A DNA stretch of 64,000 nt from an uncultured Candidatus Saccharibacteria bacterium (GTDB taxonomy: Bacteria > Patescibacteriota > Saccharimonadia > Saccharimonadales > JAGQNJ01), in the NCBI GenBank assembly GCA_964584895.1, contig CAZPAW010000001.1, positions 270,183 through 334,182 on the forward strand, read 5' to 3'. The notes under the pieces are model-generated. The model was not told where the DNA came from and made no database searches. It worked only from the letters and a program-made list of their open reading frames with translations. A program made the translations under genes and the position numbers. Shown here piece by piece: positions 9,134-63,396 of this stretch. Numbering within the stretch: the stretch's first letter is position 1; every line of letters starts with the position of its first letter.

Positions 9134-9147
9134 CTTTGGCGATTGAT

Positions 9148-9178: not shown

Positions 9179-9201
9179 TTCTAGCTGTTAACTATATTTT
9201 A

Positions 9202-11039: not shown

Positions 11040-11042
11040 TTT

Positions 11043-14094: not shown

Positions 14095-14095
14095 A

Positions 14096-19541: not shown

Positions 19542-19550
19542 TGCTATAAT
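19542..19550 (+). promoter_or_regulatory. Extended -10 box (TGcTATAAT) for the NUDIX gene
   Basis: Consensus TGnTATAAT, 11 nt before ATG 19562. Confidence 0.45.
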
Positions 19551-19561
19551 TGACATTAATA

Positions 19562-35293: not shown

Positions 35294-36814
35294 TTATAAT
35301 TCGTGAACAACGGAGATTTTGGCGCCGAGTGAGTTCAAGCGTTCGGCGATATCCTCGTATCCCCGGTTAATGGTGTAGACATTACGAAGCATTGACGTAC
35401 CCTCTGCTGCTAGCATTCCGATTAGGAGTAAACTTGCGGGCCTAAGTGCGGGTGGCGACACAACATCAGCATGCGTAAATTCTGTTGGGCCATTAATATA
35501 GACACGATAAGGGTCGGCTAGTTCTATGTTTGCACCGATTTTGCTCATCTCTGTGTAATATATCGCACGATTCTCGAACATCCAGTCATGGATCAATGTT
35601 CTTCCTTTGCAAACTGAGGCTATCGGTACAAAGTACGGGATGCAATCAGGATTAACACCGGGCCACAAGTTGGGGTGGAGTTTGTCTTTTAGTGCATGAA
35701 GTGACCCGTCGTGTTTATCGATTGTAATATCTGCTAGGTCTATAACGCCGTTATCGGCCTTGTACGATTTTGATAATCTATAAATTAGGCCCATTTTCTT
35801 CAGCTTTAATAACTCTAGACCAATCCATCGATAAGGAACTCTTTTAATAGTTAATTTTGAATTGGTTGTAATGGCTGTCGAAATAAAGAACATTGCCTCT
35901 ATAGGGTCTTCGGTTGGCGCAAAAGTAATGTTCTTTTTTATGTTTTTTACGCCGTGAATTTTAAGAGTTGTTGTGCCAAACCCTGATATTTTAACACCTA
36001 GTTTTTGTAAAAATAATGTTAAATCCTGAACCATGTAATCTGCGCTGGCTGCAGAAATTGTAGTTTCGCTTGTTGTGCCAGCAGCCGCTAATAGTGCATT
36101 ATTAGTAACCGTATTGCCTTGTTCGTAAAGCACGAAATCACCAGCCGGTTTTTTATTAACGGTTACGTCATATTTGCCTGTTGTTGCTTTTATTGTAACG
36201 CCAAAATTTTCTAGTGCGTATAAGTGTGGCGCAACCGATCTACGTCCCAGTTTGCACCCACCGGCGTAGGGGATTTTGAAGTGACTGTATTCATGCATCA
36301 AAACTCCGAGTAGCATTAATATGCTCCTAGTTTTTACAGCGCTTTTTTTATTAATTTTTTCGAGCTCTAGCTTCGCGGGACGACGAATCTCCAGATCATT
36401 ATTATTGCCCCATTTAATTTTTACCCCTATGCTTTCTAGCACTTCAATGATTCTGTAGACTTCTTCTATTCGAGGGAATGATTTGAATCGTGTTACACCG
36501 TTATTGAGTAAACTAGCGCAAAGCAGGGCAACTGCAGCATTTTTGCTTTGTTTTAAAGTTATTGATCCGCTCAGTTTTCGGCCACCTTCTACGCGCAAAT
36601 TAATAGATTTGTCACTAATGTTAATTAGTGATTTATTCAATACTTCACTAATCCTGCCAAGCATGTCGAGGCTCATATTTTGTCGACCGTGTTCTATACG
36701 ATTTACGGCTGATTGACTAGTTTTTAGTTGTTTTGCAAACTCTGCTTGAGTTAATCCCTTATCTAGTCGTATCTGATAAATTAAGTGCCCAATTTTTTCA
36801 TTTGTGCTTTTCAT
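35294..36814 (-). CDS. murA: XRE-family HTH domain fused to UDP-N-acetylglucosamine 1-carboxyvinyltransferase (MurA)
   Basis: Residues 1-65 are a Cro/C1 HTH (GLTQAEFAKQLKTSQSAVNRIEHG). The remainder is MurA: LSGSITLKQSKNAAVALLCASLL, and the active-site Cys is retained in AGGCKLGRRSV. Confidence 0.85.
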   Translation of the reverse strand: MKSTNEKIGHLIYQIRLDKGLTQAEFAKQLKTSQSAVNRIEHGRQNMSLDMLGRISEVLNKSLINISDKSINLRVEGGRKLSGSITLKQSKNAAVALLCASLLNNGVTRFKSFPRIEEVYRIIEVLESIGVKIKWGNNNDLEIRRPAKLELEKINKKSAVKTRSILMLLGVLMHEYSHFKIPYAGGCKLGRRSVAPHLYALENFGVTIKATTGKYDVTVNKKPAGDFVLYEQGNTVTNNALLAAAGTTSETTISAASADYMVQDLTLFLQKLGVKISGFGTTTLKIHGVKNIKKNITFAPTEDPIEAMFFISTAITTNSKLTIKRVPYRWIGLELLKLKKMGLIYRLSKSYKADNGVIDLADITIDKHDGSLHALKDKLHPNLWPGVNPDCIPYFVPIASVCKGRTLIHDWMFENRAIYYTEMSKIGANIELADPYRVYINGPTEFTHADVVSPPALRPASLLLIGMLAAEGTSMLRNVYTINRGYEDIAERLNSLGAKISVVHEL

Positions 36815-36905: not shown

Positions 36906-37937
36906 ATGTTACCTTCAGAATTATTTATACAACAAACAACTTATGTAATTGGCTTATCGCTGTTCTCTTTTTTTGTTGCAGTCGTTCTGACGCCATTCTA
37001 TTCGCATTTCGCTTATAAGCATAAGTGGTGGAAGCGTTCTAGAACTCATTCTGTGACCGGAGAAGAATTAAAAATAATAAAAAAACTAGACATCAAACGC
37101 CAGGTACCTATGATGGCTGGTTTGGTGTTCGTGTTAGCGATATCAATAACCACACTGGCTTTTAATCTTGATCGTGGGCAAACTTGGCTACCGTTAGCGG
37201 CGTTAGTTGGCGGAGGGTTGGTTGGATTGATTGATGATGCAATAAATTTAAGAGGTAGTGGTGGAAATGTGGCTGGCCTAAGACCGATAGTTAAATTTAC
37301 CTTAATAACTGCAGTGGCTGTAGTGGCAGCCTTGTTTTTCTACTATAAGCTTGGATACGACACGGTACATATTCCGTTCTCCGGTGATTTCTTTGTTGGC
37401 TGGTTATTGATTCCATTGTTTGTTCTTGTGGTTGTCAGCACTGGTAATGCAGTCAACATTACAGATGGTATGGATGGTTTGGCTGGTGGCGTATTGATTA
37501 GCTCCTATGGTGCATTTGGAATTATCGCGGCTCTACAAGGTCTATTTGGAATAGCGGGCTTTTGTTTTACGGTAATCGGAGCATTGTTGTCTTATCTGTG
37601 GTTCAATATACCACCTGCTCGGTTTTTTATGGGGGATGTTGGTTCTTTTGCTTTAGGTACTTCTTTAGGTGTAATTGCTATGCTAACTGACGCACTATTT
37701 CTGCTACCGATTATTGCATTAATATTTGTAGCAGAAGCTGGTTCGGTTGTATTGCAAACGTTTTCAAAAAAGTTATTCAAACGGAAAATCTTTATTGCCT
37801 CTCCGATTCATCATCATTTCGAAGCTTTAGGTTGGCCAAAGACAAAAGTTACCATGAGGTTTTGGGTGATTGCGCAGGTATGCGCAGCTTTAGGAATTGC
37901 CTTGGCTCTAACTGGTGGATTTATTTATCTGAATTAG
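36906..37937 (+). CDS. mraY: Phospho-N-acetylmuramoyl-pentapeptide transferase MraY
   Basis: Polytopic membrane protein with NAVNITDGMDGLA, MGDVGS and PIHHHFE motifs. Confidence 0.9.
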   Translation: MLPSELFIQQTTYVIGLSLFSFFVAVVLTPFYSHFAYKHKWWKRSRTHSVTGEELKIIKKLDIKRQVPMMAGLVFVLAISITTLAFNLDRGQTWLPLAALVGGGLVGLIDDAINLRGSGGNVAGLRPIVKFTLITAVAVVAALFFYYKLGYDTVHIPFSGDFFVGWLLIPLFVLVVVSTGNAVNITDGMDGLAGGVLISSYGAFGIIAALQGLFGIAGFCFTVIGALLSYLWFNIPPARFFMGDVGSFALGTSLGVIAMLTDALFLLPIIALIFVAEAGSVVLQTFSKKLFKRKIFIASPIHHHFEALGWPKTKVTMRFWVIAQVCAALGIALALTGGFIYLN

Positions 37938-38043: not shown

Positions 38044-39321
38044 ATGATAGACGATGAAGTAAAAAAACTAATACAAAAAGAAGAAAAAAGACAGCGCGAG
38101 GGCCTAGAGCTCATTCCGTCAGAAAACTATGTTAGCCGTCCTGTTTTGGATGCAATGGGCAGCGTCTTTAACAATAAATACTCTGAAGGTTATCCTGGAA
38201 AGCGATACTATGGCGGGCAAGAAAATACTGACAAGGTTGAGCAATTAGCAATTGATCGGGCTAAAAAAATGTTCGGGGCAGATCATGCTAATGTGCAGCC
38301 GCATGCTGGTGCTCCAGCAAATGTGGCTGTTTATTTTGCATGGCTAGAACCAGGCGATACAGTGCTCGGAATGGACTTGAGTCACGGCGGGCACTTAACC
38401 CACGGACACCCGGTTACTACTATGGCTCAACTTTACAATTTCGTTCGATACAAAATGAAAAACGTCGAAACAGGTGAAATTGATTATAACGAAATGTTAG
38501 CAGTTGCTAAAAAACATAAACCTAAAATTATTCTTGCAGGATTCTCTGCTTACCCAAGAGAGCTTGATTATGCGAAATTTAAGTCAATAGCAGATGAAGT
38601 TGGCGCAGTATTGATGGCCGATGTGGCTCACATTGCCGGGTTGATTGTTGGCGGTGTTTTAAAAAACCCCTTTGACTTTGGTTTTCATATCGTGACCTCT
38701 ACAACACATAAATCATTACGTGGCCCTAGAGGGGGCATGATTTTATCAAAGGGAAAAGTTAGCAACCCGCTTAAAAAACCAGAAAAAATAGTCGATAATA
38801 TACCTACTATAATCGACCGAGAAGTTTTTCCTGGATTTCAAGGCGGACCAATTATGAATATGATAGCCGCAAAGGCTGTGGCTTTTGGTGAAGCGTTACA
38901 ACCTGAATTTAAAATATACTCCGAGCAAGTCGTAAAAAATGCCAAACGTCTAGCTGACGAAATGATGAAACGTGGATTTAAATTAATTACCAATGGTACG
39001 GATAATCATCTAATATTGTCTGACATCAATACATCCTTTGGAGTTGATGGCGCAGTAGCGGAACATGTTTTAGATGAGATTGGCTTGACGGCAAACAAGA
39101 ATGCTATCGCTGACGATCCTTTGCCTCCATTTCGACCTAGCGGATTGCGGTTAGGTACGCCAGCAATTACTACGCGCGGAATGAAAGAAGATGATATGGA
39201 ACTTGTGGCTGAGTGGATGCTTAAAGCAATAAATCGTCGTAATGACAAAAAAGCCCTCAATAAATTACATAGCGAAGTAATTGAATTTTCTAAAAAATTT
39301 CCACTACCAAGCGATAACTAG
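38044..39321 (+). CDS. glyA: Serine hydroxymethyltransferase
   Basis: LELIPSENY, GYPGKRYYGG and TSTTHKSLRGPRGG (PLP lysine). Confidence 0.95.
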   Translation: MIDDEVKKLIQKEEKRQREGLELIPSENYVSRPVLDAMGSVFNNKYSEGYPGKRYYGGQENTDKVEQLAIDRAKKMFGADHANVQPHAGAPANVAVYFAWLEPGDTVLGMDLSHGGHLTHGHPVTTMAQLYNFVRYKMKNVETGEIDYNEMLAVAKKHKPKIILAGFSAYPRELDYAKFKSIADEVGAVLMADVAHIAGLIVGGVLKNPFDFGFHIVTSTTHKSLRGPRGGMILSKGKVSNPLKKPEKIVDNIPTIIDREVFPGFQGGPIMNMIAAKAVAFGEALQPEFKIYSEQVVKNAKRLADEMMKRGFKLITNGTDNHLILSDINTSFGVDGAVAEHVLDEIGLTANKNAIADDPLPPFRPSGLRLGTPAITTRGMKEDDMELVAEWMLKAINRRNDKKALNKLHSEVIEFSKKFPLPSDN

Positions 39322-40343
39322 ATAAGTTCGGGTTCTTGTTCTAGGGTGATTCCGTATTTTTGCTCGACGGCATCAACTATTTTATTCTTAAAATTTATAA
39401 CGTCATTAGTGCTATGAGCATTTTCATTGATTATTACGAGGGCTTGCTTTGACCATGTTGCCATTCCAGTATCGTGATCGTGAAAATCTTTGTAACCAGC
39501 TTTTTCTATTAGCCAGCCTGCCGAAAGTTTTACCTTGTTGTCGTCTATTGGCCACGAAACCATATCAGGAAATTTAGATTTTAGTGCCTCGAATTTTGGG
39601 TTGTCTATGATTGGGTTCGCAAAAAATGATCCGTTATTGGCAACAATATCAGGATCAGGAAGTTTTTTTGATCGTATTGCTATTACACCACGACGGATAT
39701 TCTCGGGGGTATATTCAGTTATTTTATTTTCGTCAAGATAACTTTGTAGCGATGCGTAGAATGGTGGCGTTGCGTACTTTTTACTAAGTTTTAGAGTGAT
39801 TGCAGAAATTATGAATCTTCCTTTATCGGATGTTTTAAACCGACTGGTTCTGTAGCCAAATTTGCACTCTGACTTAGGTATATCGACAAAGCCCTTTTTT
39901 TGTATATCATAGGCTCGAATCGATACAAGTGTATCGGCAATCTCCTTGCCGTAAGCCCCAACATTCTGGACAGGTGTCGCCCCTACTCGTCCAGGAATCC
40001 ATGACAGTTGTTCAATCCCGCTAAGTTTATTTTCAACGCTCCACTGGACCATCTCGTCCCAATCTTCTCCGCTAGCAAGCTTCACGATGACATCGTCATT
40101 ATCTACGGAGGCTATTTCATGACCCATGATTCTATTGAGTATCACTAGTCCGTCAAAGCCTTGATCTCGCCAAATAATGTTACTGCCGCCGCCAATTGCA
40201 ATAATATTTTGTTTGTTCCTTGTTGCCCATTCAATTAGTTCGACAAGTTCGGTCTCGGAGTTGGCTTCATCAAAATATTTGGCATTACCGCCAACACGCA
40301 TAGTTGAATAATCTTTGAGTGATACATTTTCTTTTGGGCGCAT
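39318..40343 (-). CDS. murB: UDP-N-acetylenolpyruvoylglucosamine reductase MurB
   Basis: FAD-binding GGGSN motif, C-terminal SAGWLIE and FANP patterns. 4-nt 3'-end overlap with glyA. Confidence 0.85.
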   Translation of the reverse strand: MRPKENVSLKDYSTMRVGGNAKYFDEANSETELVELIEWATRNKQNIIAIGGGSNIIWRDQGFDGLVILNRIMGHEIASVDNDDVIVKLASGEDWDEMVQWSVENKLSGIEQLSWIPGRVGATPVQNVGAYGKEIADTLVSIRAYDIQKKGFVDIPKSECKFGYRTSRFKTSDKGRFIISAITLKLSKKYATPPFYASLQSYLDENKITEYTPENIRRGVIAIRSKKLPDPDIVANNGSFFANPIIDNPKFEALKSKFPDMVSWPIDDNKVKLSAGWLIEKAGYKDFHDHDTGMATWSKQALVIINENAHSTNDVINFKNKIVDAVEQKYGITLEQEPELI

Positions 40344-46269: not shown

Positions 46270-46579
46270 AAAAATTAATGAATTTGTGGATCTTTTTCAT
46301 AAGTATAATTTTTAACTAAGATAAAATTAGACTTACTGCTTGGTTAAAAAATAGTTACAGCGTCATCCATGTGGCCCTACATCAAAATGACCTTAGCTAG
46401 TCCGGGGTATTTTCTATGGAAGGCAGTAAGCAAGTCAACTGCTTGGTTTGCGTGGGACTCTAACGGGAGGAGCGTTGTAGAGTAACTTAGCGAGACCGCG
46501 AGCTGAGTTCACAAGTCCGCTGTTTCGTCATAACCACAAGCGTCTTGTTGGGCACTTTTTGTTATGCAATACTATATTC

Positions 46580-47095
46580 ATGAAGAAGAACCAACGAGGT
46601 TTCAGTCTGGTTGAACTTCTTGTTTTGTTGCTTTGTCTGGGGTTGATCTTGCTAGTTGGTTGGTATGCCTGGAATAGATTAAGCCCTTCGACCGATGTTG
46701 ATAAGCCGTCAAACTCCAATACAAGTAATCAAGATACATCATTTTCGATAAAAATTGATCCGATGGTAGGGGGTGGCTTCGAAGGCGCAGTTAATAGTTA
46801 TGAAATTACAGCCACAGGTGAGGTTTTTAACCTAAGAGCACCAAATCAAAGAACTGATGTAAAGAAATCATTACTAAAGAAGATTACGCTGGAAGAAGTC
46901 AAAGAAATTCGCCAGTCTTTTATTGAATCGGGTGTTTTGGATTTAGCTTCGGGATATGGTCCACAGTATGGAGGTTCTGTCTGGACGGTCACTATTAATG
47001 GCAAAGAACAATTTTTTTATGATCAAACATCCTCTAAATTTGACGCCGTTAAAATCAAATTGAAAAAGATACTTGGTGAAGATGTGAGTATATGA
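46580..47095 (+). CDS. Pilin-like protein with prepilin N-terminal motif
   Basis: MKKNQRG-FSLVELLVLLLCLGLILLVGWY has Glu5. Followed by a 140-aa globular part. Confidence 0.55.
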   Translation: MKKNQRGFSLVELLVLLLCLGLILLVGWYAWNRLSPSTDVDKPSNSNTSNQDTSFSIKIDPMVGGGFEGAVNSYEITATGEVFNLRAPNQRTDVKKSLLKKITLEEVKEIRQSFIESGVLDLASGYGPQYGGSVWTVTINGKEQFFYDQTSSKFDAVKIKLKKILGEDVSI

Positions 47096-53113: not shown

Positions 53114-53602
53114 GTGTTAAATCAATTAGCTCAAGTTACATATGAGTACACAACTACAACCACTAATGTGGATGAAGGTGTAATAGCCGGAATCTTAGGA
53201 ATGATGGCAGCAATGATGATTGTCATAATACCTATCGCGATTTTCGGTATTATTTGCATGTGGAAGGTCTTTGAAAAGGCTGGAGTAGAAGGATGGAAGT
53301 CAATAATCCCTGTATATAACATGTGGTGTTTGGCTGAAATCTCTGGCAAGCCGGGATGGTGGGCATTAATCTACCTGCTTTGCTTTATTCCTATCATTAA
53401 CATCTTTGCTTCTATCGCAGCACTTGTACTTTATGTGATAGTTGCAATCGAATTATCAAAATCATTTGGTAAGGATCCTGTATTCTCGCTACTATTGATA
53501 TTTTTGAACATCATTGGTCTCGCTATACTTGCTTTTGGCGATGCAAAATACGTTGGTCCAGGCGGCAAAAAAGGTGGTTCTGCAAAACCAGCAGCCGCTT
53601 AG
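53114..53602 (+). CDS. DUF5684-like membrane protein
   Basis: MWKVFEKAGVEGWKSIIPVYNMWCLAEISGKPGWWALIYL matches the DUF5684 core recalled from memory. SD AAAGGAGG precedes the GTG start. Confidence 0.6.
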   Translation: MLNQLAQVTYEYTTTTTNVDEGVIAGILGMMAAMMIVIIPIAIFGIICMWKVFEKAGVEGWKSIIPVYNMWCLAEISGKPGWWALIYLLCFIPIINIFASIAALVLYVIVAIELSKSFGKDPVFSLLLIFLNIIGLAILAFGDAKYVGPGGKKGGSAKPAAA

Positions 53603-53621
53603 TAACCTCTTGATTTACAAT

Positions 53622-53652
53622 AAAGAGGAGGCATTTTGTGTCTCCTCTTTTT
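53622..53652 (+). terminator. Intrinsic terminator
   Basis: Stem AAAGAGGAG/CTCCTCTTT with an 11-nt loop, followed by a T-run. Confidence 0.65.
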
Positions 53653-53680
53653 ATTTAAGCTGTTATACAATACACACCTG

Positions 53681-54478
53681 ATGAAGTTATTGAATGGATC
53701 AGAACTAGCTGGTTATATTAAAGCTCGACAAGCGAAGCAGGTGCGAGCACTTGTTCAAGCCCATCACATACAGCCAAAGCTTGCAATTATTCAGGTAAAA
53801 GATGATCCGGTGATTAATGTCTACGTTAGATTAAAAGAGCAATACGGTCGGGATATAAATGTAGCAGTCGATGTATTTAGGCTAAAACAATCAGAAGTGA
53901 CAGATAAAATAATCGAACTCAACAATGATGATTCTGTCCACGGCATTATTGTACAGCTTCCCCTTAGCGATGTTAGCGAAACCGAAGAAGTAGTCAATCT
54001 TGTTTCTTCTAAAAAAGATGTAGATGCATTAGGTAAAAATGCAAAATTTGATCCAGCTACTCCGATGGCAATTATGTGGCTACTTAGTGGATATAATGTT
54101 GAATTGAAAGACAAAAAGATTTTATTGGTTGGACGAGGTCGACTTGTCGGCGCTCCACTGGAAAAGTCTTTGAAAAAATCTGGTCATAATATTGAGGTAG
54201 TTGAACGTAATGTAGAGGATTTGGGAGAAAAAGCAAAACAAGCCGATATCATAATTACGGCAACAGGTAGTCCAGCGATATTAAGTGCAGATATGATAAA
54301 ACAAAACGCTGTAGTAGTAGATGCTGGTGTAGCTAGTGAATCAGGCAAAAAAGTAGGTGACCTTCATGATGATGTTTACGAGCGCGACGATCTGATTATC
54401 ACCCCGAAGAAAGGTGGAGTCGGACCCCTAACCGTCTGCGCCTTATTTGAGAATGTCATAAGGGCTGCAAATAAGTGA
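53681..54478 (+). CDS. folD: Bifunctional methylenetetrahydrofolate dehydrogenase/cyclohydrolase FolD
   Basis: MKLLNGSELAGYIKARQ, VQLPL, GRGRLVGAPL, PKKGGVGPLTVCALFEN. Start at ATG 53681. Confidence 0.9.
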   Translation: MKLLNGSELAGYIKARQAKQVRALVQAHHIQPKLAIIQVKDDPVINVYVRLKEQYGRDINVAVDVFRLKQSEVTDKIIELNNDDSVHGIIVQLPLSDVSETEEVVNLVSSKKDVDALGKNAKFDPATPMAIMWLLSGYNVELKDKKILLVGRGRLVGAPLEKSLKKSGHNIEVVERNVEDLGEKAKQADIIITATGSPAILSADMIKQNAVVVDAGVASESGKKVGDLHDDVYERDDLIITPKKGGVGPLTVCALFENVIRAANK

Positions 54479-55128
54479 AACATCCAAGAATAGGGGTATT
54501 TGATTCTGGTGTTGGTGGCCAAGTTTTTGTTAATGCCATTAAAAAAGCCATTCCTGATGCTCAAGTTACCTACTTAACGGATACAAAAAATATTCCATAT
54601 GGTAGCAAGACTAAAACTGAACTATTAAAAATAACTAAACCATTAATAAAACAGTTAGCTAAAGAAACTGATTTGATAGTAATTGCTTGTAATACTGTCA
54701 GTACCCTGTTAATTGAAGATTTAAGAAAATTAGTAGATATACCTCTTGTTGCAGTTGAACCGATGGTAAAAACCGCTTCAAGCAAAACAAAAAGCAAGAT
54801 TATCGCTGTTTGTGCCACCCCCGCAACACTATCAAGTCCTAGATACAAACATCTGAAAAATGAATATGCAACAGGTATAGAGGTAATTGAACCTGACTGT
54901 TCGGAATGGTCGGCAATGATTCAAGCGAATGAACTTAATATGGATAAGATTGAGTCAACGATTAAAGATGTATGCAACAAAGGTGCTGATGTAATAGTGC
55001 TAGGCTGTACTCATTATCACTGGATAGAGAAAGAAATTGATGAAATTTCAGCTGATAAAGCGACAGTCTTACAGCCTGAGCAAGCGGTTATTTTGCAGGT
55101 TTTGCGAGTGCTTGAACAACTTGCTTAA
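54475..55128 (+). CDS. murI: Glutamate racemase (short form)
   Basis: IGVFDSGVGG plus both catalytic Cys motifs, ACNTVS and GCTHY. Only 217 aa. Confidence 0.8.
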   Translation: MKHPRIGVFDSGVGGQVFVNAIKKAIPDAQVTYLTDTKNIPYGSKTKTELLKITKPLIKQLAKETDLIVIACNTVSTLLIEDLRKLVDIPLVAVEPMVKTASSKTKSKIIAVCATPATLSSPRYKHLKNEYATGIEVIEPDCSEWSAMIQANELNMDKIESTIKDVCNKGADVIVLGCTHYHWIEKEIDEISADKATVLQPEQAVILQVLRVLEQLA

Positions 55129-56446
55129 ATTGCACGCCTCTCTCGATATAATTTTCAAACATATCAAAACTAGCGCATGCTGGAGATAACAAGACGACAT
55201 CTCCTTTGACGGCAAGTTTATTAGCCTGTTCGATTATCTCTGGCATTTTTACGCTTGCATCAAGGAGGGTTGTCCCGATTTTTTTCTCTGCATCGTATGC
55301 CTTTATTGTATTTATTATTTTTGGACCCATGACACCTATTCCGATTACATATTTTACGTTGCCATTTATTATTGTTTGCGCTAATTCGCTAAATTCGGCA
55401 CCTTTATCAGATCCACCTAATATCATAATTTTTGGTTGATTGAATGATTTTATTGCGACGATTGCAGTCTCGGGGGTTGTTCCGAACGAGTCATTAACAT
55501 AAGTAACTCCGTTAATATTTGCTACCATTTCCAATCGATGTTCTAGGCCTGTAAAGGCCTGCAAAACTTTCTTATATATTTTTGGTTGATAGCCGACAAT
55601 TGTCCAAGTTGCAGCTATTGATGCGCAGACATTCTCTAAATTATGTCGGCCAAGCAATTTTACATCGTGCACTTTGCAGATTTTGTGACCTTGCATATAT
55701 ATATGAGAATCTTGTATGTAGGCTCCGTTGGTTTCTATCGGCTCCTGACCGATAGCTGGCACTTCATAGCTCAACTTACGAGCTTGACTGCTATCTGCGA
55801 TTTCTTCGGAATAGGTATTAAGTGAATTGTAGACAGCGATGTTTTGTGGTGTCTGATGTGCAAATAGTTGCTCCTTAGCTTTTACGTATTCATAAAAATC
55901 ATTATGCCAGTCTAGATGTTCGGCGGTTACCATGAGGCACACTGCGATATGGGGTGAGTACTTTAGATCGATAGTCTGAAAATTAGCTAATTCAAGGACC
56001 ACCCAATCAGTGTTTTGTATATTATTTTTTAGAAGTTCGAGTGGTGGGGTGCCGATATTTCCGCCTAAATGAACATGATGACCAGCCGATTCTAAAATCT
56101 TTGCAATCAGGCTACTAGTCGTGCCTTTTCCCTTGGTGCCGGTTACGGCGATGATCGGGGCAGGGCAAACTCGAAAGAATTCATTAGTGACTGTTGTTAC
56201 CTTTTCTATGACCTCTGGATGATCAGTATTGTTATCGATGATGTTTTGAGGATGAAGTCCAGGCGAACGAACAATCAAGTCATATTCGTGTAAATTATTT
56301 AAATAATCACTACCAAAGACAGATTTGATTCCCTCTGGCACAGCTATTTGGTTGGCATCGCAAATAGTTATTTCATTGCCAGCTTGACCCCAGTATTCTA
56401 GAGCAGCTTTGCCTTGAAGACCATACCCTAAAATTGTAATTTTCAT
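55088..56446 (-). CDS. murD: UDP-N-acetylmuramoylalanine--D-glutamate ligase MurD
   Basis: GTKGKGTT P-loop and Mur ligase middle/C-terminal patterns. Its 3' end overlaps the murI 3' end by 41 nt. Confidence 0.9.
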   Translation of the reverse strand: MKITILGYGLQGKAALEYWGQAGNEITICDANQIAVPEGIKSVFGSDYLNNLHEYDLIVRSPGLHPQNIIDNNTDHPEVIEKVTTVTNEFFRVCPAPIIAVTGTKGKGTTSSLIAKILESAGHHVHLGGNIGTPPLELLKNNIQNTDWVVLELANFQTIDLKYSPHIAVCLMVTAEHLDWHNDFYEYVKAKEQLFAHQTPQNIAVYNSLNTYSEEIADSSQARKLSYEVPAIGQEPIETNGAYIQDSHIYMQGHKICKVHDVKLLGRHNLENVCASIAATWTIVGYQPKIYKKVLQAFTGLEHRLEMVANINGVTYVNDSFGTTPETAIVAIKSFNQPKIMILGGSDKGAEFSELAQTIINGNVKYVIGIGVMGPKIINTIKAYDAEKKIGTTLLDASVKMPEIIEQANKLAVKGDVVLLSPACASFDMFENYIERGVQFKQVVQALAKPAK

Positions 56447-56471: not shown

Positions 56472-56840
56472 TTAATTTAGTTGTGCTTTCACGACTTCGG
56501 CGACTTGTTTTGGAGTCATGTCTGCCTTTAATATAACTGCAGCAACACCCAGTTTTTTGACGTCTTCGGGGATTTCTTGTTCACCCATGTTGGTTAGGAT
56601 GATGACTTTTATTTTACTACCCCAGTTTGTCTTACGCATCTTTGCCAGCATTTCATCACCATTCATCTCTGGCATCATTAAATCCAACAATATGACGTCT
56701 GGTTTCATTTTTTCAGCCAGCTCTAATCCTAATTTGCCGTTTTCAGCAGTTTCGACTTCGTAACCTTCGGCTTCAAACTTAAAGCGATACATCTGTGAGA
56801 TTGCTTGGTCGTCTTCGATGATTGCAACTTTAGCCACCAT
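56472..56840 (-). CDS. Stand-alone response-regulator receiver domain protein (REC-1)
   Basis: EDD, phospho-acceptor D in ILLDLMMP, and the LTN and KA(D) signature residues. No output domain. Confidence 0.85.
   Translation of the reverse strand: MVAKVAIIEDDQAISQMYRFKFEAEGYEVETAENGKLGLELAEKMKPDVILLDLMMPEMNGDEMLAKMRKTNWGSKIKVIILTNMGEQEIPEDVKKLGVAAVILKADMTPKQVAEVVKAQLN
56626..56758 (-). repeat. 133-bp tract identical to 57034..57166
   Basis: Base-by-base comparison shows 133/133 identity inside otherwise diverged paralogs. The tract encodes ...VETAENGKLGLELAEKMKPDVILLDLMMPEMNGDEMLAKMRKT. Confidence 0.95.
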
Positions 56841-56879
56841 AATACATGTATCGTACCATGTTTTTTCGGGATTGTGTTT

Positions 56880-57248
56880 TTACGAAAGTGTTTTTTTAAT
56901 GATATCAATCACTTGAGTTGGCGTATATTGTGCTTTAACGATTATATCGAGAACGCCTAATTTGCTTACTGACTCTGGGATCTCTTCTTCTCCGAGATTA
57001 GTCAGGACCACAACCTTTATATTTTGACCCCACTTTGTCTTACGCATCTTTGCCAGCATTTCATCACCATTCATCTCTGGCATCATTAAATCCAACAATA
57101 TGACGTCTGGTTTCATTTTTTCAGCCAGCTCTAATCCTAATTTGCCGTTTTCAGCAGTTTCGACTTTATAGCCTTCTGCGCGAAACTTAAAACTGTACAT
57201 CTGGGATATAGCGTCGTCGTCTTCGATGATTGCAATTTTTTTTGACAT
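56880..57248 (-). CDS. Stand-alone receiver domain protein (REC-2)
   Basis: Starts at MSKKIAIIEDDD (ATG 57248, SD GAGGA upstream). Has the same REC signature residues. Confidence 0.85.
   Translation of the reverse strand: MSKKIAIIEDDDAISQMYSFKFRAEGYKVETAENGKLGLELAEKMKPDVILLDLMMPEMNGDEMLAKMRKTKWGQNIKVVVLTNLGEEEIPESVSKLGVLDIIVKAQYTPTQVIDIIKKTLS
57034..57166 (-). repeat. 133-bp tract identical to 56626..56758
   Basis: See the paired feature at 56626..56758. Confidence 0.95.
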
Positions 57249-57323
57249 AAGTTTTATCGTCCTCTTTATCGTATTTGTTATATTCCTCTGATTAGCAATT
57301 GTCAATCTTAGCTTTCAACAATC

Positions 57324-57701
57324 TTATTCTAGTAATTTTTTAACCTCCTTTATTACTTGTGAAGGGGTGAGGTCAGCCTTGACTATATATTTATCAAATT
57401 TAAGCTCCTTTAATTTTTTTGGTGCTTCGCTATAGCTGATGTTAGTAAGTACCATGACTTTCATTTTTTCGGCCCATTTAAAGCGTTGTAGTTTTTGCAA
57501 TACAACTTCGCCATCTATGATTGGTATTTTTAGATCAAGTAGCAATAGGTCTGGCTTGATGCGAATGGCTTTAATTAGCGCCTCTTTCCCATCTTCTGCC
57601 AGGCTTACCCTGATTCCGCTGGATTCAAATTTGATGCGATACATCTCCCTTATTGCATCATCGTCCTCTATTAAAAGTATCTTTTTATTTTTTGACACCA
57701 A
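57324..57701 (-). CDS. Stand-alone receiver domain protein (REC-3)
   Basis: LLIEDDD, LLLDLKIP, VLTN, VKAD. Confidence 0.85.
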   Translation of the reverse strand: MVSKNKKILLIEDDDAIREMYRIKFESSGIRVSLAEDGKEALIKAIRIKPDLLLLDLKIPIIDGEVVLQKLQRFKWAEKMKVMVLTNISYSEAPKKLKELKFDKYIVKADLTPSQVIKEVKKLLE

Positions 57702-57761
57702 AAGATGATAACCATAAACGAGTTGGTTGCCAAATTATTATCTACAACAAAGTATAAAACG

Positions 57762-58136
57762 CTAGTTTAGGATTGTTTTTATTTCTTCAATGACTTGTGA
57801 CGGTGTGTAGTGAGCTTTTACGATGTATTTTTTTACGTTTAATAGTCGTAGATTGTGGGGTGCCTCGTCACGGCTAATATTTGTTAAGATTATTACTGGT
57901 ATATCAGAGCCCCAATCCGTTTCGCGGAGTTTTTGTAGCATTTCGTCACCACTCATTACGGGCATTTTTATATCTAGTAGTATCAGATCTGGTTTGCGTT
58001 TTTTTATAATCTTTAACCCCTCTTCGCCATTGGATGCTGTAGTAACACTAAAACCCGAAAGCTCAAGTTTTAACTTGTACATTTCTTGAATAAAAGGCTC
58101 GTCTTCTATTACTGCAATCAAATTTTGATTTGGCAT
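57762..58136 (-). CDS. Stand-alone receiver domain protein (REC-4)
   Basis: AVIEDE, ILLDIKMP, ILTN, VKAH. Confidence 0.85.
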   Translation of the reverse strand: MPNQNLIAVIEDEPFIQEMYKLKLELSGFSVTTASNGEEGLKIIKKRKPDLILLDIKMPVMSGDEMLQKLRETDWGSDIPVIILTNISRDEAPHNLRLLNVKKYIVKAHYTPSQVIEEIKTILN

Positions 58137-58234
58137 GTATTATTTGTAGCACAATCTTTACTATCACAATAATTGGTTGTACAAAAACTTCAGAATTAAG
58201 AAGAAACACATGGCTTGCATAGTAATACGATAAA

Positions 58235-58243
58235 TGCTATAAT
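58235..58243 (+). promoter_or_regulatory. Extended -10 box (TGcTATAAT), 7 nt before ATG 58251
   Basis: Consensus TGnTATAAT; the gap to the start codon is 7 nt. Confidence 0.5.
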
Positions 58244-58250
58244 AATATTT

Positions 58251-58703
58251 ATGAAACATTCGGGTTTAATTAGTAGTCCTTCTGGTCGAGCAAATGAAAG
58301 ATTAATTAGAGAAGTAGAGATGTCAAGGCTTCGTGGCAAGCCATTAGATCCAGAGGCCATCGGCGTTCTTCAATCGAAGCTATATGAGTTAGCAGAAGCA
58401 GAAATAGCATGGGAAGAAGCTAGTGGTGAATTTTTTTCATCTGGTCAACAAAATAGAGCGCCAGAACCAAGCGTTCTTGTGGATATGATTAAACTAGGTA
58501 AAGTAGATGCCGTAGAAGCAGTCGATGCGCTTACTCAGCACCCTGAGCCTAGAGTTTTGATTGAACTGTCACGAACAGCCATGATAACACCAGAACAAAG
58601 AAGTAATTTGATGATAAACGTTAGCCATATTGCTCCAGATTTGGTGGGTCCAATTCAAAATGCTTGGGCAATTCAACGAGGTCTGAACTCTCAACATAAC
58701 TAG
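58251..58703 (+). CDS. Hypothetical soluble protein
   Basis: 150 aa starting at MKHSGLISS. No motif recognised. Composition looks GC-richer than the surrounding genes. Confidence 0.4.
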   Translation: MKHSGLISSPSGRANERLIREVEMSRLRGKPLDPEAIGVLQSKLYELAEAEIAWEEASGEFFSSGQQNRAPEPSVLVDMIKLGKVDAVEAVDALTQHPEPRVLIELSRTAMITPEQRSNLMINVSHIAPDLVGPIQNAWAIQRGLNSQHN

Positions 58704-58782
58704 TCCAGGAATAATCTCAGCGGGCTAATGATTCGGGATTACTCATTTTTGGTCTAGAAATATATCAGATGAAAATAAATAA

Positions 58783-58811
58783 TTGACAATTCATAAATAT
58801 TGTTATAGAAT
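58783..58811 (+). promoter_or_regulatory. Near-consensus sigma70-type promoter
   Basis: TTGACA, 17 nt, TAGAAT. Confidence 0.5.
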
Positions 58812-58833
58812 GGAATTAGTACATTTTTAGACT

Positions 58834-58886
58834 AGTCGTTCGTTTAACTTTCTTTTTTGATAAAGGAGGTCGACGAACGATTTTTT
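58834..58886 (+). promoter_or_regulatory. Terminator-like hairpin plus U-run inside the 5' leader of the 58907 gene
   Basis: Stem AGTCGTTCGTT/GACGAACGATT encloses a 27-nt loop carrying AAAGGAGG, followed by T6. The real SD TAAGGAGG and the ATG follow. Confidence 0.35.
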
Positions 58887-58906
58887 AATAAGGAGGCTTA
58901 AAAAAG

Positions 58907-59491
58907 ATGCATTTAAAAAGACACGGTGAAATTAACGATTTTAACCCATCAAGACAAAAAATATCAAAAGGCGGTAGGGTGGCCTTAGCTGGTGTAGCTT
59001 TATTAGGTGTAGGCGCAATAGGATTTGGCGTTAGCTCTATGACTAAACAAGAAGGTTTTTCAAACAATGTCAGTGATATGCAAGACTTAGCAGCGTTTAC
59101 TAGTCCAGCACATCAAGAGGATCGTCAAAATACCCAAGATGCGGTTGATGCTCAAGAAACAATGAGGCAGTTCTTTGCAGATCAAGGTGGAATAACTGAT
59201 GAACAATTAGCGCTCTTTGCGCCAAATACTGGTCTTACCGAAGAACAATTAGAAGGTTTAACTTCAACTCAACTCTATCCTTTTGACTATGATGGTCATG
59301 AGCCTGAGGCTAGTACTTCATTGATGACAAAAGGATTAATTGCCGGTGGACTTGGGCTAGGTTTACTTGCTGGCGCTGGGGTTGTTGCCGCACCATGGGC
59401 GTATGATGCTAGACGACGAAGGATGGATGAAGCTGTGCAAGCATCGGTGGATACTGCCGTTATTAGTGCATTTAGTGAACCACAGAGCTAG
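58907..59491 (+). CDS. Hypothetical two-TM membrane protein
   Basis: TM segments VALAGVALLGVGAIGFGV and GLIAGGLGLGLLAGAGVVAAPW. Strong SD. Confidence 0.45.
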   Translation: MHLKRHGEINDFNPSRQKISKGGRVALAGVALLGVGAIGFGVSSMTKQEGFSNNVSDMQDLAAFTSPAHQEDRQNTQDAVDAQETMRQFFADQGGITDEQLALFAPNTGLTEEQLEGLTSTQLYPFDYDGHEPEASTSLMTKGLIAGGLGLGLLAGAGVVAAPWAYDARRRRMDEAVQASVDTAVISAFSEPQS

Positions 59492-59568
59492 TTTTTAAGG
59501 GAATAGATATGAAATTGACAAATACGCTTATGTTTGATAATAATAAAACCAGAACCTTAGAAAATAAG

Positions 59569-59620
59569 AACAAGATGCGTTCGATTGTATTTCAGTCGAT
59601 TAACCGCATCTTGTTTTTTT
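59569..59620 (+). terminator. Intrinsic terminator (large-loop hairpin plus T7)
   Basis: 11-bp stem AACAAGATGCG/CGCATCTTGTT with a 25-nt loop, followed by TTTTTTT. Confidence 0.5.
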
Positions 59621-59636
59621 ATGAAAGGAAAAAGAT

Positions 59637-61118
59637 ATGACACTTGTTCATCCAGCACCAGCAGAGACTTTACCCCACCTATCCTTTGCTAATAGGGGCG
59701 AGTTACATGAGGGTATACATATAGATGATAACGAGTTAGTTGCTGAAATGGCTCGTCGCGGTCTACCTGACGCTAATCCTAGGCAATATTGGGTCCCAGA
59801 TGCAGAAGTGGGTAAGGGCGAGGGTTACGATCAGCAGTATTTTACGATAAAGTTCGAATCTACTGTTGCGCTTTTAGAACAAAAAGGGATTGATGTTGAC
59901 CCAAGGGATGTAGAAGATACAAGGGCATTCATTGATGAAATGTTCGGTGTCTATACTGGTAAAAATGAACCATATCGAAGGAGTGAGAAAGCGGCATTTG
60001 TCGCAGCAACTCGTTTACAGCGCAATCCGCCCGGTGGTCATACGGTATGGGATTACAGGGCTGAAACTCTTGGACCGTTGCCGATTTTGAGATATTTGGA
60101 TGAGCAATCGGCTCAAACGATGTTAGTTGGTATGGCACCATTTGTCTTGGATTACTACGGAGGAATAGATCGGAAGGACGGTAATGTGATGATCTTTTCA
60201 CCACTCTTTCTTGATCTACCAGAAGACACCGGAGATATGTTCCCTGTTATCGGTACGAATATTGCAAAAGATACTTCTTATTTTGCACGTGATCGTATGG
60301 GGGTTTACCTAGGCGGTTTGGCAGCCGGGTTGCCAAGAGTAACCGGTTGGGGTGAATTGTATAGAATACCCGGCTTTAGGACTACGACTGGCCACGGCGG
60401 TACAGCACATCTTATGATCGAGACAGGACATAGTGCTATAGAAAAAGGTTTGGTTGACCCAAAGCTTGTTGATACTCTTGGAGTTGTTGGTGTTGGTGGA
60501 ATGGGACAGGTTACGGCAGAATTAATTCTCAAAAAATATTCTGATGCTCGTGTTGCAATTAACGATTTTCGACCACCTCGTATGAGAGAAATTGCTGATA
60601 GGTTGCGCGAAACTTATGGTTCTAATCGCGTAGTTGAACTTTCTACTCCAGCTGATGTCTTAGCTGTTTCGGGTGTGACTTATTCCGCCGTGACAAGAGC
60701 TATTAATCTCGACCAAACTCATCTTGGACCAGAATCGTTATTAGATCATGTAATTGTTGATGATTCCGAGCCTAAAGCTGTGAGCGTAGAGCAAGTAGAG
60801 GCTCGGGGCGGTTATCATCTTGGAGTAATAGGTACAGATAATAGTCCTGATGGTTTTGCGACAAGCACAAGGTGGTTTTATGGTGGAGATGGCAAAAATG
60901 GGAGTAATGGACCGATGCTTCCACATCACGTGTACGGTTGTACTGCTGAAGTGGTAAGTGTTGAAAAATTGGGAACTCCTGATGACGATATCATCGCAGA
61001 AGCCACTGTTCAGGATGCAGTTAGAATGGGCGAATTACTCGAACAGGCTGGAATCACAGTTGGACCACTTCAAACCATGCGTCAAGGGATCGGCGCATCA
61101 TTAGTAGAAAAACGTTAA
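59637..61118 (+). CDS. NAD(P)-binding oxidoreductase resembling the acyl-ACP reductase / COG5322 family, with a ~190-aa extra N-terminal region
   Basis: Ordered blocks TTTGHGGTAH, Rossmann GVVGVGGMGQV, VIVDDSEPKAV and VYGCTAEVV parallel FTTGNTHTAY, VVGATGDIGS, VLIDGGYPKNL and MFACFAEAM of cyanobacterial AAR, as recalled from memory. Confidence 0.4.
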   Translation: MTLVHPAPAETLPHLSFANRGELHEGIHIDDNELVAEMARRGLPDANPRQYWVPDAEVGKGEGYDQQYFTIKFESTVALLEQKGIDVDPRDVEDTRAFIDEMFGVYTGKNEPYRRSEKAAFVAATRLQRNPPGGHTVWDYRAETLGPLPILRYLDEQSAQTMLVGMAPFVLDYYGGIDRKDGNVMIFSPLFLDLPEDTGDMFPVIGTNIAKDTSYFARDRMGVYLGGLAAGLPRVTGWGELYRIPGFRTTTGHGGTAHLMIETGHSAIEKGLVDPKLVDTLGVVGVGGMGQVTAELILKKYSDARVAINDFRPPRMREIADRLRETYGSNRVVELSTPADVLAVSGVTYSAVTRAINLDQTHLGPESLLDHVIVDDSEPKAVSVEQVEARGGYHLGVIGTDNSPDGFATSTRWFYGGDGKNGSNGPMLPHHVYGCTAEVVSVEKLGTPDDDIIAEATVQDAVRMGELLEQAGITVGPLQTMRQGIGASLVEKR

Positions 61119-61182: not shown

Positions 61183-63396
61183 ATGGTTGCGTTTATTTTT
61201 ATGCTACTCGCGTTGGCGACAATCGTTGAGCTAATCTATTGTGTAATTTTCTTACAATTGACTTTACAGCGTCGCGAAGCGATATACCTATACTTTAGTA
61301 TTTTTACTGGTATTGCTTTGTTTTGGAATCTTGGGACAGTTTTAATGCTTTTCGGAGAGAAAACCTCGACAGTATATTTAGGCTATTGGTTTTGGCTAAT
61401 TGCACCGATGTTTTCAACACTGTTTATTTTATTTTTCTGCCAACAGTTTATAAAAAATAAAATTCAGCCCATATATTTTTTAGGGCTTGTGTTCATCGTG
61501 ATTTATGCGCTTTTTTTAGCAATCAACAACAATCTGATTGATATAGAATTTTCTACTCAAGGTATAAATTCTATTATTCCCAACAAGTTATTTTATATTT
61601 TTTATGGATTATTTTTTGCAATTTATTTCGATATCAGTATATTCACTTTACGACAACATTCTATTCAGAAGGATAGGGCTAAATATTTACAAGCAAAAAG
61701 TATCGTTTATGCAACAGGTTTTACAGGGACATTAGCTGTATTTACGAATATCGTATTACCGGCACTTGGTATCACTAAATATGTTTGGATGGGTCCGATA
61801 TTTTCTCTAGTATTTTTAAGTTTTTCAACCGTTGCAATTACAAAATACAAACTATTAGATATAAGAGGTGCAATACTGCGCTCAACTAGCTATGTGTTTA
61901 CGGTTGTGTCTTTGGCCTTTGTCTTATCTGTAGTGCTATTTGGTGTGCTTGGCCGTACCACATTATTTAGTAATTTTACTTTTGCTCAGTGGACGGTAAT
62001 TTCACTAATTATGGCTATCTTTTCGGGTATATATGCTCCTTTACAAAAATTTTTCGACAAAATTAGTAGCAGATATTTTTATCGAGATGCGTACGATCCA
62101 GCAGACCTATTAAATGAACTTAATACTTTTTTGGTCTCTTCTATTGATTTAGATAAGATAATTCATGATTCCTCGGAAATTATTGAGAAGTACCTAAAGC
62201 CCAGATTTGTTATTTTCAATGTCTATGAAAGTGAAAATACCAAGAAACGGTCTGTCGTAACAGCAGATTCTGTGACTTCGAATTCTATATCACTCGACCC
62301 AATCTATAAAATCGCAAACAAACTTAGTTCCGATATCACTACTTTTTCTGGTAATGATAGTCTTGAGGGTGAAGTAAAAAAATTAGCTATAAAGCAGGAT
62401 ATTGAGCTTGTATCAAAAATCGCATCTACGAGTTCAAAAAATGAAATAATCGGGTCGATTGTACTGGGTTCTAAGAAAAATGGCGGTTTATTTAATCGTC
62501 AGGATCTGCGTGTAATCAAAATAATCTCTGATGAGTTAGCTATAGCAATCCAGAATGCTTTGAGATTTGAGGAGATTCAGCAATTTAACATTACTTTGCA
62601 GAAAAAAGTTGATGATGCAACCAAAGAACTGAGAAAGGCTAACGAGAAGTTAATCGCGCTAGATCAGACAAAAGACGACTTTATTAGTATGGCATCACAC
62701 CAACTTCGAACCCCTTTGACCTCTGTTAAGGGGTACATAAGTATGGTTATCGAAGGTGATGTCGGTAAAATCACCAAACAACAGCATAAATTGCTTGATC
62801 AAGCGTTTCTTAGCTCTCAGCGGATGGTTTATTTGATAGCAGATTTGCTAAATGTCTCGAGATTAAAAACAGGTAAGTTTATTATTGAGCCTAAACCAAC
62901 TAATCTAGCAGATCTGATCGAGGGTGAGTTAAGTCAATTAACAGAGACGGCAAAATCACGAAATTTAACTTTAAATTATAAAAAACCTGATAATTTTCCT
63001 CTGTTTATGTTAGACGATACAAAGATAAGGCAGGTGGTTATGAATTTTGCCGATAATGCGATCTACTATACTCCGATGGGTGGAAAAATTGATGTTAACA
63101 TTGCGGATACTGGCAAGACGATTGAATTTACTGTTACAGATAACGGTATAGGGGTGCCAAAGAACGAAAGACATAATCTATTTAGCAAGTTCTATCGTGC
63201 AAATAATGCTAAAAAAGCTCGTCCTGACGGTACTGGATTAGGCTTATTTATGGCCAAGAAAGTAATTATCGCTCAAGGAGGAGCAATAATCTTTAAGTCT
63301 GAAGAAGGTAAGGGCAGTACATTTGGCTTTAGTTTTGACAAAGAAAAAATAAAAGTTCCAGAGCATATCAAGCAACAAATTCCTAAAAAAGCATAA
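61183..63396 (+). CDS. Sensor histidine kinase with ~8-TM N-terminal domain and GAF-like linker
   Basis: H-box SHQLRTPLT, N box NFADNAIYYT, G boxes DNGIGVP and GTGLGLFMAKK. The N-terminal 290 aa are polytopic. Confidence 0.85.
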   Translation: MVAFIFMLLALATIVELIYCVIFLQLTLQRREAIYLYFSIFTGIALFWNLGTVLMLFGEKTSTVYLGYWFWLIAPMFSTLFILFFCQQFIKNKIQPIYFLGLVFIVIYALFLAINNNLIDIEFSTQGINSIIPNKLFYIFYGLFFAIYFDISIFTLRQHSIQKDRAKYLQAKSIVYATGFTGTLAVFTNIVLPALGITKYVWMGPIFSLVFLSFSTVAITKYKLLDIRGAILRSTSYVFTVVSLAFVLSVVLFGVLGRTTLFSNFTFAQWTVISLIMAIFSGIYAPLQKFFDKISSRYFYRDAYDPADLLNELNTFLVSSIDLDKIIHDSSEIIEKYLKPRFVIFNVYESENTKKRSVVTADSVTSNSISLDPIYKIANKLSSDITTFSGNDSLEGEVKKLAIKQDIELVSKIASTSSKNEIIGSIVLGSKKNGGLFNRQDLRVIKIISDELAIAIQNALRFEEIQQFNITLQKKVDDATKELRKANEKLIALDQTKDDFISMASHQLRTPLTSVKGYISMVIEGDVGKITKQQHKLLDQAFLSSQRMVYLIADLLNVSRLKTGKFIIEPKPTNLADLIEGELSQLTETAKSRNLTLNYKKPDNFPLFMLDDTKIRQVVMNFADNAIYYTPMGGKIDVNIADTGKTIEFTVTDNGIGVPKNERHNLFSKFYRANNAKKARPDGTGLGLFMAKKVIIAQGGAIIFKSEEGKGSTFGFSFDKEKIKVPEHIKQQIPKKA

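Follow-up and report, generated by a model that had tools for sequence, protein, structure and literature searches.

Response regulators that consist of a receiver (REC) domain alone occur in several described signalling systems, and these are the nearest counterparts of the locus that we report here, an array of four tandem receiver genes, REC1 to REC4, on the minus strand at 56472-58136 of a 64,000-nucleotide (nt) stretch of DNA, hereafter the window, from an uncultured Candidatus Saccharibacteria bacterium (GenBank assembly GCA_964584895.1, contig CAZPAW010000001.1, positions 270,183 to 334,182). Like the system proposed here, HK853-RR468 of Thermotoga maritima (PDB 3dge, 4ja2) combines a class I HisKA kinase with a REC-only regulator, RR468, of 122 amino acids (aa). 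The Saccharibacteria locus differs from it in holding four paralogs, in their divergent orientation to a kinase with a sensor of about eight transmembrane (TM) segments, and in a REC family that has Ala at position K+1 and Asn at T+1 throughout. RR468, for its part, is encoded by one gene only, in an operon shared with its kinase, and its output, to our knowledge, is not known either.

Several REC-only acceptors that compete for one kinase and differ in kinetics or output are found in the multi-CheY sink systems (CheY1/CheY2 of Sinorhizobium, CheY1-6 of Rhodobacter; theory in PMC4214558). Those systems, however, comprise CheA, CheW and chemoreceptors and target the flagellar motor, whereas none of these was found in the window, which encodes a membrane HisKA kinase instead. 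The hub proteins DivK and MrrA of Alphaproteobacteria (PMC5964349) are likewise REC-only and signal through protein contacts in ways tied to growth and the cell cycle, and the strong conservation described below fits several interaction surfaces. The partner proteins DivL, DivJ and PleC belong to a different phylum, however, and the four receivers score 42-63 bits on the NCBIfam DivK-like model NF045717 (59.2, 63.1, 42.1 and 56.9), against a cutoff of 160. In EpsW-EpsZ of Myxococcus xanthus (PMC12802240), a REC-only regulator acts post-translationally on an envelope-glycan enzyme, the best precedent for a link between REC1 and its neighbour murD; a CheA-type kinase feeds EpsW, whose target is a phosphoglycosyl transferase.

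One kinase with several REC-only acceptors is a known kind of arrangement; its membership, context and conservation pattern at this locus are new and undescribed. We found no account of this module in the literature on response regulators or two-component systems of Saccharibacteria and Patescibacteria, and the main texts of PMC10633639 and PMC11665869 make no mention of response regulators, two-component systems or histidine kinases. We propose, with a probability of roughly 0.55, that the four receivers are paralogous, phosphorylatable single-domain regulators on the output side of a Saccharibacteria-specific two-component module in which one kinase would feed several of them.

Four stand-alone receivers with an intact set of catalytic residues

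An initial inspection of this DNA from its letters and translated open reading frames (ORFs), the sequence-only reading, had described four consecutive minus-strand ORFs of 122-125 aa, each a complete REC domain without a DNA-binding or enzymatic output domain. Numbered from the murD side and given in window positions, these are REC1 (56472-56840, 122 aa), REC2 (56880-57245, 121 aa from its ATG), REC3 (57324-57701, 125 aa from a TTG start) and REC4 (57762-58136, 124 aa). Each is matched by PF00072 (E 1.8e-22, 5.9e-22, 3.7e-16 and 1.8e-22, respectively) above the gathering threshold, at 59.7-80.1 bits against a cutoff of 30.2, and PF00072 is the sole significant Pfam match of each, so that both the complete domains and the lack of an output domain are borne out. 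REC4 has one sub-threshold match besides, to OKR_DC_1_N (E 0.0064, 17.2 bits against a cutoff of 29.3), and none of the four reaches an NCBIfam equivalog or family cutoff. They are stand-alone receivers, 121-125 aa long with one REC domain each, and no further REC domain was detected when every window ORF of 70 aa or more was searched with a REC hidden Markov model. Only REC2 departs from the earlier range of lengths. The ORF list carries a version of it that extends to a TTG at 57305 (141 aa), and the orthologs in two related loci (L093 and L097) begin at the ATG. The spacers had been put at 25-60 nt, which holds between REC4 and REC3 (60 nt), between REC2 and REC1 (39 nt) and between REC1 and murD (25 nt); the gap from REC3 to REC2 is wider, at 78 nt (18 nt with the TTG start).

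All four receivers keep the residues of the phosphorylation site, as the sequence-only reading had noted. The per-position table of their alignment gives E9-D10-D11 (EDE in REC4) for the acidic pocket, the phospho-acceptor D53 within LLDL or LLDI, T83 within LTN and K105 within LKA or VKA. This DD/D/T/K set is also kept, with rare exceptions, in 59 related RECs, and the four are not pseudo-receivers. Among solved structures, those closest to REC1 are of RR468 (E 8e-19 to 2e-18, over the full length), followed by the Spo0F group (E 5e-14). Since no output domain is present, the receivers must act by protein contact or by onward phosphotransfer.

The paralogs differ at positions with known effects in receiver domains: D+2 and T+2 influence how fast phosphorylation and dephosphorylation proceed, K+1, K+2 and K+4 the conformational equilibrium, and K-3 the coupling to the alpha4-beta5-alpha5 face (PMC8510515). 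D+2 and T+2 are M/M in REC1, M/L in REC2 and K/I in both REC3 and REC4; K-3 is V, I, Y and Y, and K+2 is D, Q, D and H, in the order REC1 to REC4. In the REC4 type (type B), the Y at K-3 and the H at K+2 are invariant. These variable positions suggest that the paralogs differ in phosphoryl lifetime, in output partners or in both, and on sequence grounds the differences would fit a sink or threshold role and parallel outputs equally well.

A neighbouring kinase as the putative shared phosphodonor

The proposed phosphodonor is encoded on the plus strand at 61183-63396. It is a class I HisKA histidine kinase (Pfam HisKA, 3.5e-14; HATPase_c, 1.4e-24) with a weak GAF-like region and, by hydropathy, about eight hydrophobic segments in residues 1-285. 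The window protein has no match to PF16927 (HisKA_7TM), for which precomputed matches, some of them weak, exist in the orthologs from five related loci (L093, L097, L117, L119 and L121). Across 21 orthologs the H-box SHQLRTP is invariant and the DHp helices, FISMASHQLRTPLTSVKGY... and SSQRMVYLIADLLNVSRLKTGKF, show identities of 0.85-0.90, while the sensor shows 0.11-0.28, or 0.11-0.36 for the roughly eight-segment membrane part together with the weak GAF-like region; in some species the kinase has a form of about 480 aa in which the DHp is the same. With a near-invariant DHp and a hypervariable sensor, the input of the kinase varies and its transmitter is fixed.

Our survey of signalling genes covered the window, by Pfam scans of its 69 ORFs, and not the rest of the genome. 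No second histidine kinase was found among these ORFs, nor any Hpt, CheA, CheW, methyl-accepting chemotaxis protein (MCP) or REC-HTH regulator, in agreement with the earlier statements that the multi-TM kinase is the only one nearby, that no HTH-type response regulator accompanies it and that chemotaxis and Hpt genes are absent. The position of the kinase in relatives was judged in 30 species-level Saccharibacteria loci (L013-L042), which were pulled with a REC1-ortholog profile and annotated by phmmer and hmmsearch with the window proteins; a phmmer score above 300 defined a kinase ortholog, and 25 of the 30 loci had enough upstream flank to be judged. A kinase ortholog lies on the opposite strand, 1.9-5 kb upstream of REC1, in 19 of the 30 species (25 assessable), which makes it a plausible shared partner of the receivers, as had been suggested. 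The intervening genes vary from genome to genome and the kinase is still close, and it remains linked to REC in loci where murD is absent (L016, L039, L041 and L119).

The receivers present this kinase with a common docking surface. Helix-1 positions 13, 14, 17, 18, 21 and 22 read A-I-M-Y-K-F in REC1, REC2 and REC3 and F-I-M-Y-K-L in REC4, and I14, M17, Y18 and K21 are invariant or dominant in all REC types; another stand-alone REC family of the candidate phyla radiation (CPR) has M-I-V at positions 14, 17 and 18. Given the same helix-1 residues, the four receivers would not be insulated from each other, which fits one kinase feeding all.

Several points nevertheless weigh against a single shared kinase. 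The kinase and the REC genes are divergent, with about 3 kb of unrelated genes between them, and 6 of the 25 assessable species, and two other long contigs besides (L007 and L010), showed no kinase ortholog within 8 kb. In any kinase family, moreover, the DHp helices are normally conserved better than the rest. The shared helix-1 residues may simply reflect the common descent of the paralogs, and other kinases may be encoded elsewhere in the genome, outside the 64-kb window. The opposite strands, the 3-kb distance and the species without a nearby ortholog would equally suit orphan paralogs whose dedicated kinases are encoded elsewhere, with the nearby kinase serving something else and the tandem order recording duplication history only; so would the differences at the output face and the kinetic positions, and other kinases do occur in Saccharibacteria, with four annotated in Southlakia epibionticum ML1 (PMC10633639 supplement). 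We consider such orphan paralogs unlikely: the same kinase family lies within 5 kb in 19 of the 25 assessable species despite the turnover of the genes between, the docking residues are the same in all four receivers, and the window holds no other kinase.

In a phosphorelay, a branched form of which had also been raised at the outset, one or more of the receivers would be intermediates that hand the phosphoryl group to an Hpt- or Spo0B-like protein, from which it would reach a terminal DNA-binding regulator with its gene at another locus. Spo0F of Bacillus is REC-only like REC1 and forms its second-best group of structural matches, and Saccharibacteria can encode OmpR-type regulators, two of which are annotated in Southlakia ML1 (PMC10633639 supplement). 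Spo0F, however, needs Spo0B and Spo0A, and no Hpt- or Spo0B-like protein was found among the 69 window ORFs or among the precomputed Pfam matches of neighbours in related loci. The string 'Hpt' is absent from the Southlakia ML1 annotation tables, and both OmpR-type regulators there have an adjacent kinase of their own (PMC10633639 supplement). With no Hpt in the window, the related loci or the ML1 tables, we rate a relay as the least likely option and as very improbable.

A lineage-specific expansion with unequal members

The relatives of these proteins come almost all from genomes of Saccharibacteria (Saccharimonadia, Patescibacteria/CPR). In the 30-species sample, one REC copy stands upstream of murD in 14 species, two tandem copies in another 14 and three in the remaining 2. 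Other long contigs hold one (L007), two (L005) or three (L010), L117 holds three, and the closest relatives, L097 and L093, hold three each; four copies were found in this window only among the loci examined. The sequence-only reading would have been undermined had the array lacked counterparts in all relatives, and arrays of two to three genes in the same position proved to be common, a wider conservation than that reading had supposed. We conclude that a module of kinase, receiver(s) and murD exists across the Saccharibacteria and that in this lineage its receivers have expanded to four.

REC1, the type A receiver next to murD, is the conserved core of the array. Its orthologs in 33 Saccharibacteria species are 64-87% identical to the window protein, with a median of 76% that compares with 63% for FolD, 53% for MurD and 47% for the kinase and makes REC1 the most conserved gene of the region; mean column identity over 30 orthologs is 85%. 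Nonsynonymous divergence (dN), computed against orthologs in two related species with synonymous divergence (dS) saturated, is 0.018-0.036 for REC1, 0.10-0.11 for REC2, 0.14 for both REC3 and REC4, 0.13-0.14 for MurD and 0.40 for the kinase. Because dN is 0.018-0.14 with dS saturated, the four receiver genes are judged to be under purifying selection and not decaying.

REC2 is an older duplicate of REC1. It is 75% identical to REC1 and 82-84% identical to the middle copies of L097 and L093, it groups with REC1-type sequences in all 300 bootstrap replicates, and the trio of REC2 with its L093 and L097 counterparts has 100% support; this placement and this support establish REC2 as a REC1 duplicate of the sub-lineage. 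Within the window, a 133-bp block of REC1 (56626-56758, minus strand) is 100% identical to one of REC2 (57034-57166, minus strand), with flanks that are about 70% identical. In both genes the block covers aa 28-71, including D53. The identity is confined to the window, for in L093 and L097 the REC2 orthologs depart from REC1 along this stretch, and we therefore attribute it to recent gene conversion. The alpha4-alpha5 sequence of REC2 stays REC2-specific despite the conversion tract, so that REC2 retains an alpha4-beta5-alpha5 sequence of its own. Short-read assemblies of the same strain, made independently from three samples (L001, L002 and L003), all end at the borders of the block (window 57034 and 57137), which argues that the REC1/REC2 repeat is real; contigs of this lineage in public collections will therefore tend to under-represent the array. 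A repeat analysis found nothing besides this repeat, with its period of 408 nt, and Rfam found no RNA element near the array, the only hits being six tRNAs.

The other two receivers are more distant. REC3 is a divergent paralog, 77% identical to the first copy of L097 and at most 51% identical to everything else. REC4, the distal gene, is 83% identical to the first copy of L093 and 61-68% identical to distal copies in many species, and is best taken as the common, widespread second paralog (type B). A clean division of the non-REC1 paralogs into a 'B' and a 'C' clade had to be rejected, with bootstrap values of 1.5% and 32%. The phylogeny proposed by the sequence-only reading yielded two robust features, the split of REC1/REC2 from the rest and the REC2 trio; the deeper relationships among non-REC1 paralogs are unsupported, which counts against the module as we propose it. 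The four receivers are not equivalent, comprising a conserved core (REC1), a gene-converted duplicate (REC2) and two divergent paralogs (REC3 and REC4).

murD is the recurrent neighbour of the receivers

The gene 25 nt downstream of REC1 on the same strand, on which the sequence-only reading did not remark, is murD (55088-56446; Pfam Mur_ligase_M, Mur_ligase_C and MurD-like_N). Convergent with it, on the plus strand at 53114-55128, lie DUF5684, folD and murI, the rest of a conserved block whose phmmer orthologs keep the same order in related loci; relatives carry precomputed Pfam matches to Asp_Glu_race, THF_DHG_CYH and DUF5684. The conserved synteny is REC-murD-murI-folD. Across the 30-species sample murD follows the REC1 ortholog on the same strand within 250 nt in 21 species and within 2.4 kb in 25, mostly with gaps of 2-45 nt, and murD is the only recurrent functional neighbour of the receivers. 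A metagenome scan with the window MurD, a sparse sample that gives no unbiased frequency, returned a single close relative, L101, with the order REC-REC-murD-murI; the other MurDs in its results were distant and had no REC. We saw no REC-murD link outside this clade in the loci examined, and in a more distant relative (L114) murD lies among other Mur ligases, without REC. In the window itself the peptidoglycan genes are scattered with no dcw-type cluster (MraY-like GT4 at 36906-37937, MurB at 39318-40343, MurI at 54475-55128 and MurD as above).

The array and murD are probably co-transcribed, as the short gap and a terminator scan suggest. No terminator-like site was found on the minus strand from 58136 to 55088, that is, from REC4 to murD. 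Upstream of REC4 lies a divergent intergenic region of 114 nt (58137-58250), which separates it from the o150/o162 gene. Promoter-like matches did not exceed the expectation from shuffled sequence, with promoter and terminator counts at or below it; with promoter-like matches at chance, the operon structure is a putative one, which speaks against the arrangement we favour. So does the annotation of Southlakia epibionticum ML1, where the gene upstream of murD encodes a hypothetical protein and not a REC (PMC10633639 supplement), and the adjacency of REC and murD may be inherited synteny without functional meaning.

These neighbours raise the question of whether the receivers control the cell wall. 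REC1 would then be a core, Saccharibacteria-wide post-translational switch: when phosphorylated it would attach to MurD, or to some other enzyme of peptidoglycan synthesis or division, and tune that enzyme, coupling the kinase signal to growth, and the extra receivers would be threshold-setting phosphate sinks. The proximity of murD, with murI next, is what one would expect, as is the detachment of murD from the other Mur ligases in this clade when L114 has murD among them and no REC. That REC1 is so extremely conserved suggests a housekeeping partner that is conserved as well, and EpsW, which activates EpsZ post-translationally, offers a precedent (PMC12802240). On the other hand, REC1 stays beside folD where murD has moved away (L016, L039-L041 and L119), Southlakia ML1 has no REC upstream of murD, and that two genes lie side by side says little about interaction when genomes are small and syntenic. 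We hold cell-wall control through REC1 to be unlikely, both as a target for the receivers and as an account of the array as a whole. If true, it would link peptidoglycan precursor supply and episymbiont growth directly to a signal from the host or the envelope, read by the fast-evolving multi-TM kinase and its acyl-ACP-reductase-like partner, through a growth control circuit independent of transcription in a phylum with very few regulators.

Pilus genes, the intervening cassette and other window features

Signalling to the pilus machinery, in the manner of PilG and PilH, had been put forward as a role for the array. These Pil-Chp proteins are REC-only antagonists (PMC7029496) in an organism that relies on type IV pili (T4P). 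The window does encode a T4P cluster (4247-12869, minus strand), with PilM (5505-6566), N-methyl pilin-like proteins (8026-8718 and 9202-9663), PilC/T2SSF (9807-11039) and PilB/T2SSE with MshEN (11043-12869); Saccharibacteria bind their hosts and twitch by means of two T4P systems, whose regulation has been named an open question (PMC12206443). By binding T4P motor or platform proteins, the receivers could set extension, retraction and twitching. PilG and PilH, however, are encoded with ChpA, PilI and PilJ, whereas no chemosensory gene accompanies the array, which lies 44 kb from the pilus cluster and has murD as its conserved neighbour. The cluster itself is free of regulators, with neither a REC nor a kinase nor a Chp-type gene; in none of about 40 related loci examined is the array flanked by T4P genes, and a CheA-like kinase, CheW or MCP was not found in the window. 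We regard pilus control as improbable, and of the earlier interpretation of one kinase with four receivers this part finds no support in gene order, while catalytically complete receivers with a plausible shared kinase stand. A further pilin-like gene is present at 46559-47095 (plus strand).

The sequence-only reading had also asked whether the array co-occurs with the cassette at 58251-61118, which lies between REC4 and the kinase on the plus strand. The cassette is no general companion of the receivers. Its first two ORFs, o150/o162 (150 or 162 aa) and o194 (194 aa, one TM segment), at 58251-59491 upstream of o493, have no Pfam or NCBIfam match; they are lineage-specific and not conserved parts of the module, a homolog of o194 being seen in L019 only among the loci compared. 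The third, o493 (59637-61118), just upstream of the kinase, is an acyl-ACP-reductase-like NAD(P)-binding protein without an NCBIfam family assignment. Its AlphaFold2 model has a pLDDT of 81 and the nearest folds are the cyanobacterial acyl-ACP reductase 6jzy and a reductase domain of the carmabin pathway, TAD 9e4s (E 1e-11); Cys435 is invariant. The protein is rare, with 12 homologs among 5.8e9 proteins, and in all four other contexts (L016, 3612-4994; L117, 9001-10443; L119/L120, 7001-8431 in L119; L121, 9001-10500) the homolog, in one case only 29% identical, lies directly upstream of the kinase family and is co-oriented with it. Because it adjoins the kinase in every context seen, o493 is a companion of the kinase and not of the REC array.

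In relatives, the interval between kinase and REC is a hotspot of variable genes (L005, 4860-7568; L007, 6806-7987; L097, 4758-8521; L093, 2566-7115; L010, 554-6839). Among them are arginine-related genes, namely an Orn/DAP/Arg decarboxylase, a pyruvoyl arginine decarboxylase, ArgRS-N-domain proteins and a guanidinoacetate-methyltransferase-like gene, as well as an aldehyde dehydrogenase.

Two further observations concern other parts of the window. At 35294-36814 (minus strand), a 506-aa protein joins an XRE-type HTH_3 domain (residues 12-63, E 8e-13) to an enolpyruvyl transferase of the MurA/EPSP-synthase type (75-493, E 1.5e-36), an unusual fusion of a DNA-binding domain with the first committed enzyme of peptidoglycan synthesis. 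Three separate NUDIX hydrolases, a low-molecular-weight phosphotyrosine phosphatase and a histidine-phosphatase-family gene are encoded at 14060-14608, 19550-20059, 23232-23642, 25548-25973 and 23648-24184.

Proposed mechanism and implications

In the shared-kinase module that we favour, the divergent multi-TM kinase would read a membrane or envelope signal through its fast-evolving sensor, possibly together with the acyl-ACP-reductase-like protein encoded just upstream. It would autophosphorylate at His506 and pass the phosphoryl group to Asp53 of the receivers by way of their common helix-1 docking residues. REC1, encoded on what would be the same transcript as murD, would be the core output throughout the group and act by phosphorylation-dependent binding to another protein. 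REC2, REC3 and REC4 would be extra acceptors of the same kinase with different predicted kinetics and output surfaces, serving as phosphate sinks, setting thresholds or addressing other targets.

A lead comes from Southlakia ML1, in which SEML1_0230 to SEML1_0247 bring together, within 15 kb, murD, a 129-aa REC (SEML1_0238), a 235-aa kinase (SEML1_0246) and a 121-aa REC (SEML1_0247); the last two follow one another, and both were growth-defective or essential at later time points of transposon sequencing (PMC10633639 supplement). This gene set may be a rearranged version of the same module, its members being candidate orthologs only.

Regulation in Saccharibacteria and Patescibacteria, of growth as of life on host cells, is almost unstudied. 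The locus offers a candidate circuit, conserved across the Saccharibacteria, made of a kinase with a hypervariable sensor, a receiver that evolves more slowly than the surrounding housekeeping genes, variable accessory receivers and a physical link to murD. As Saccharibacteria are now genetically tractable, the circuit is directly testable, and should the receivers turn out to target cell-wall synthesis or pili, they would form a transcription-independent control point for episymbiotic growth.

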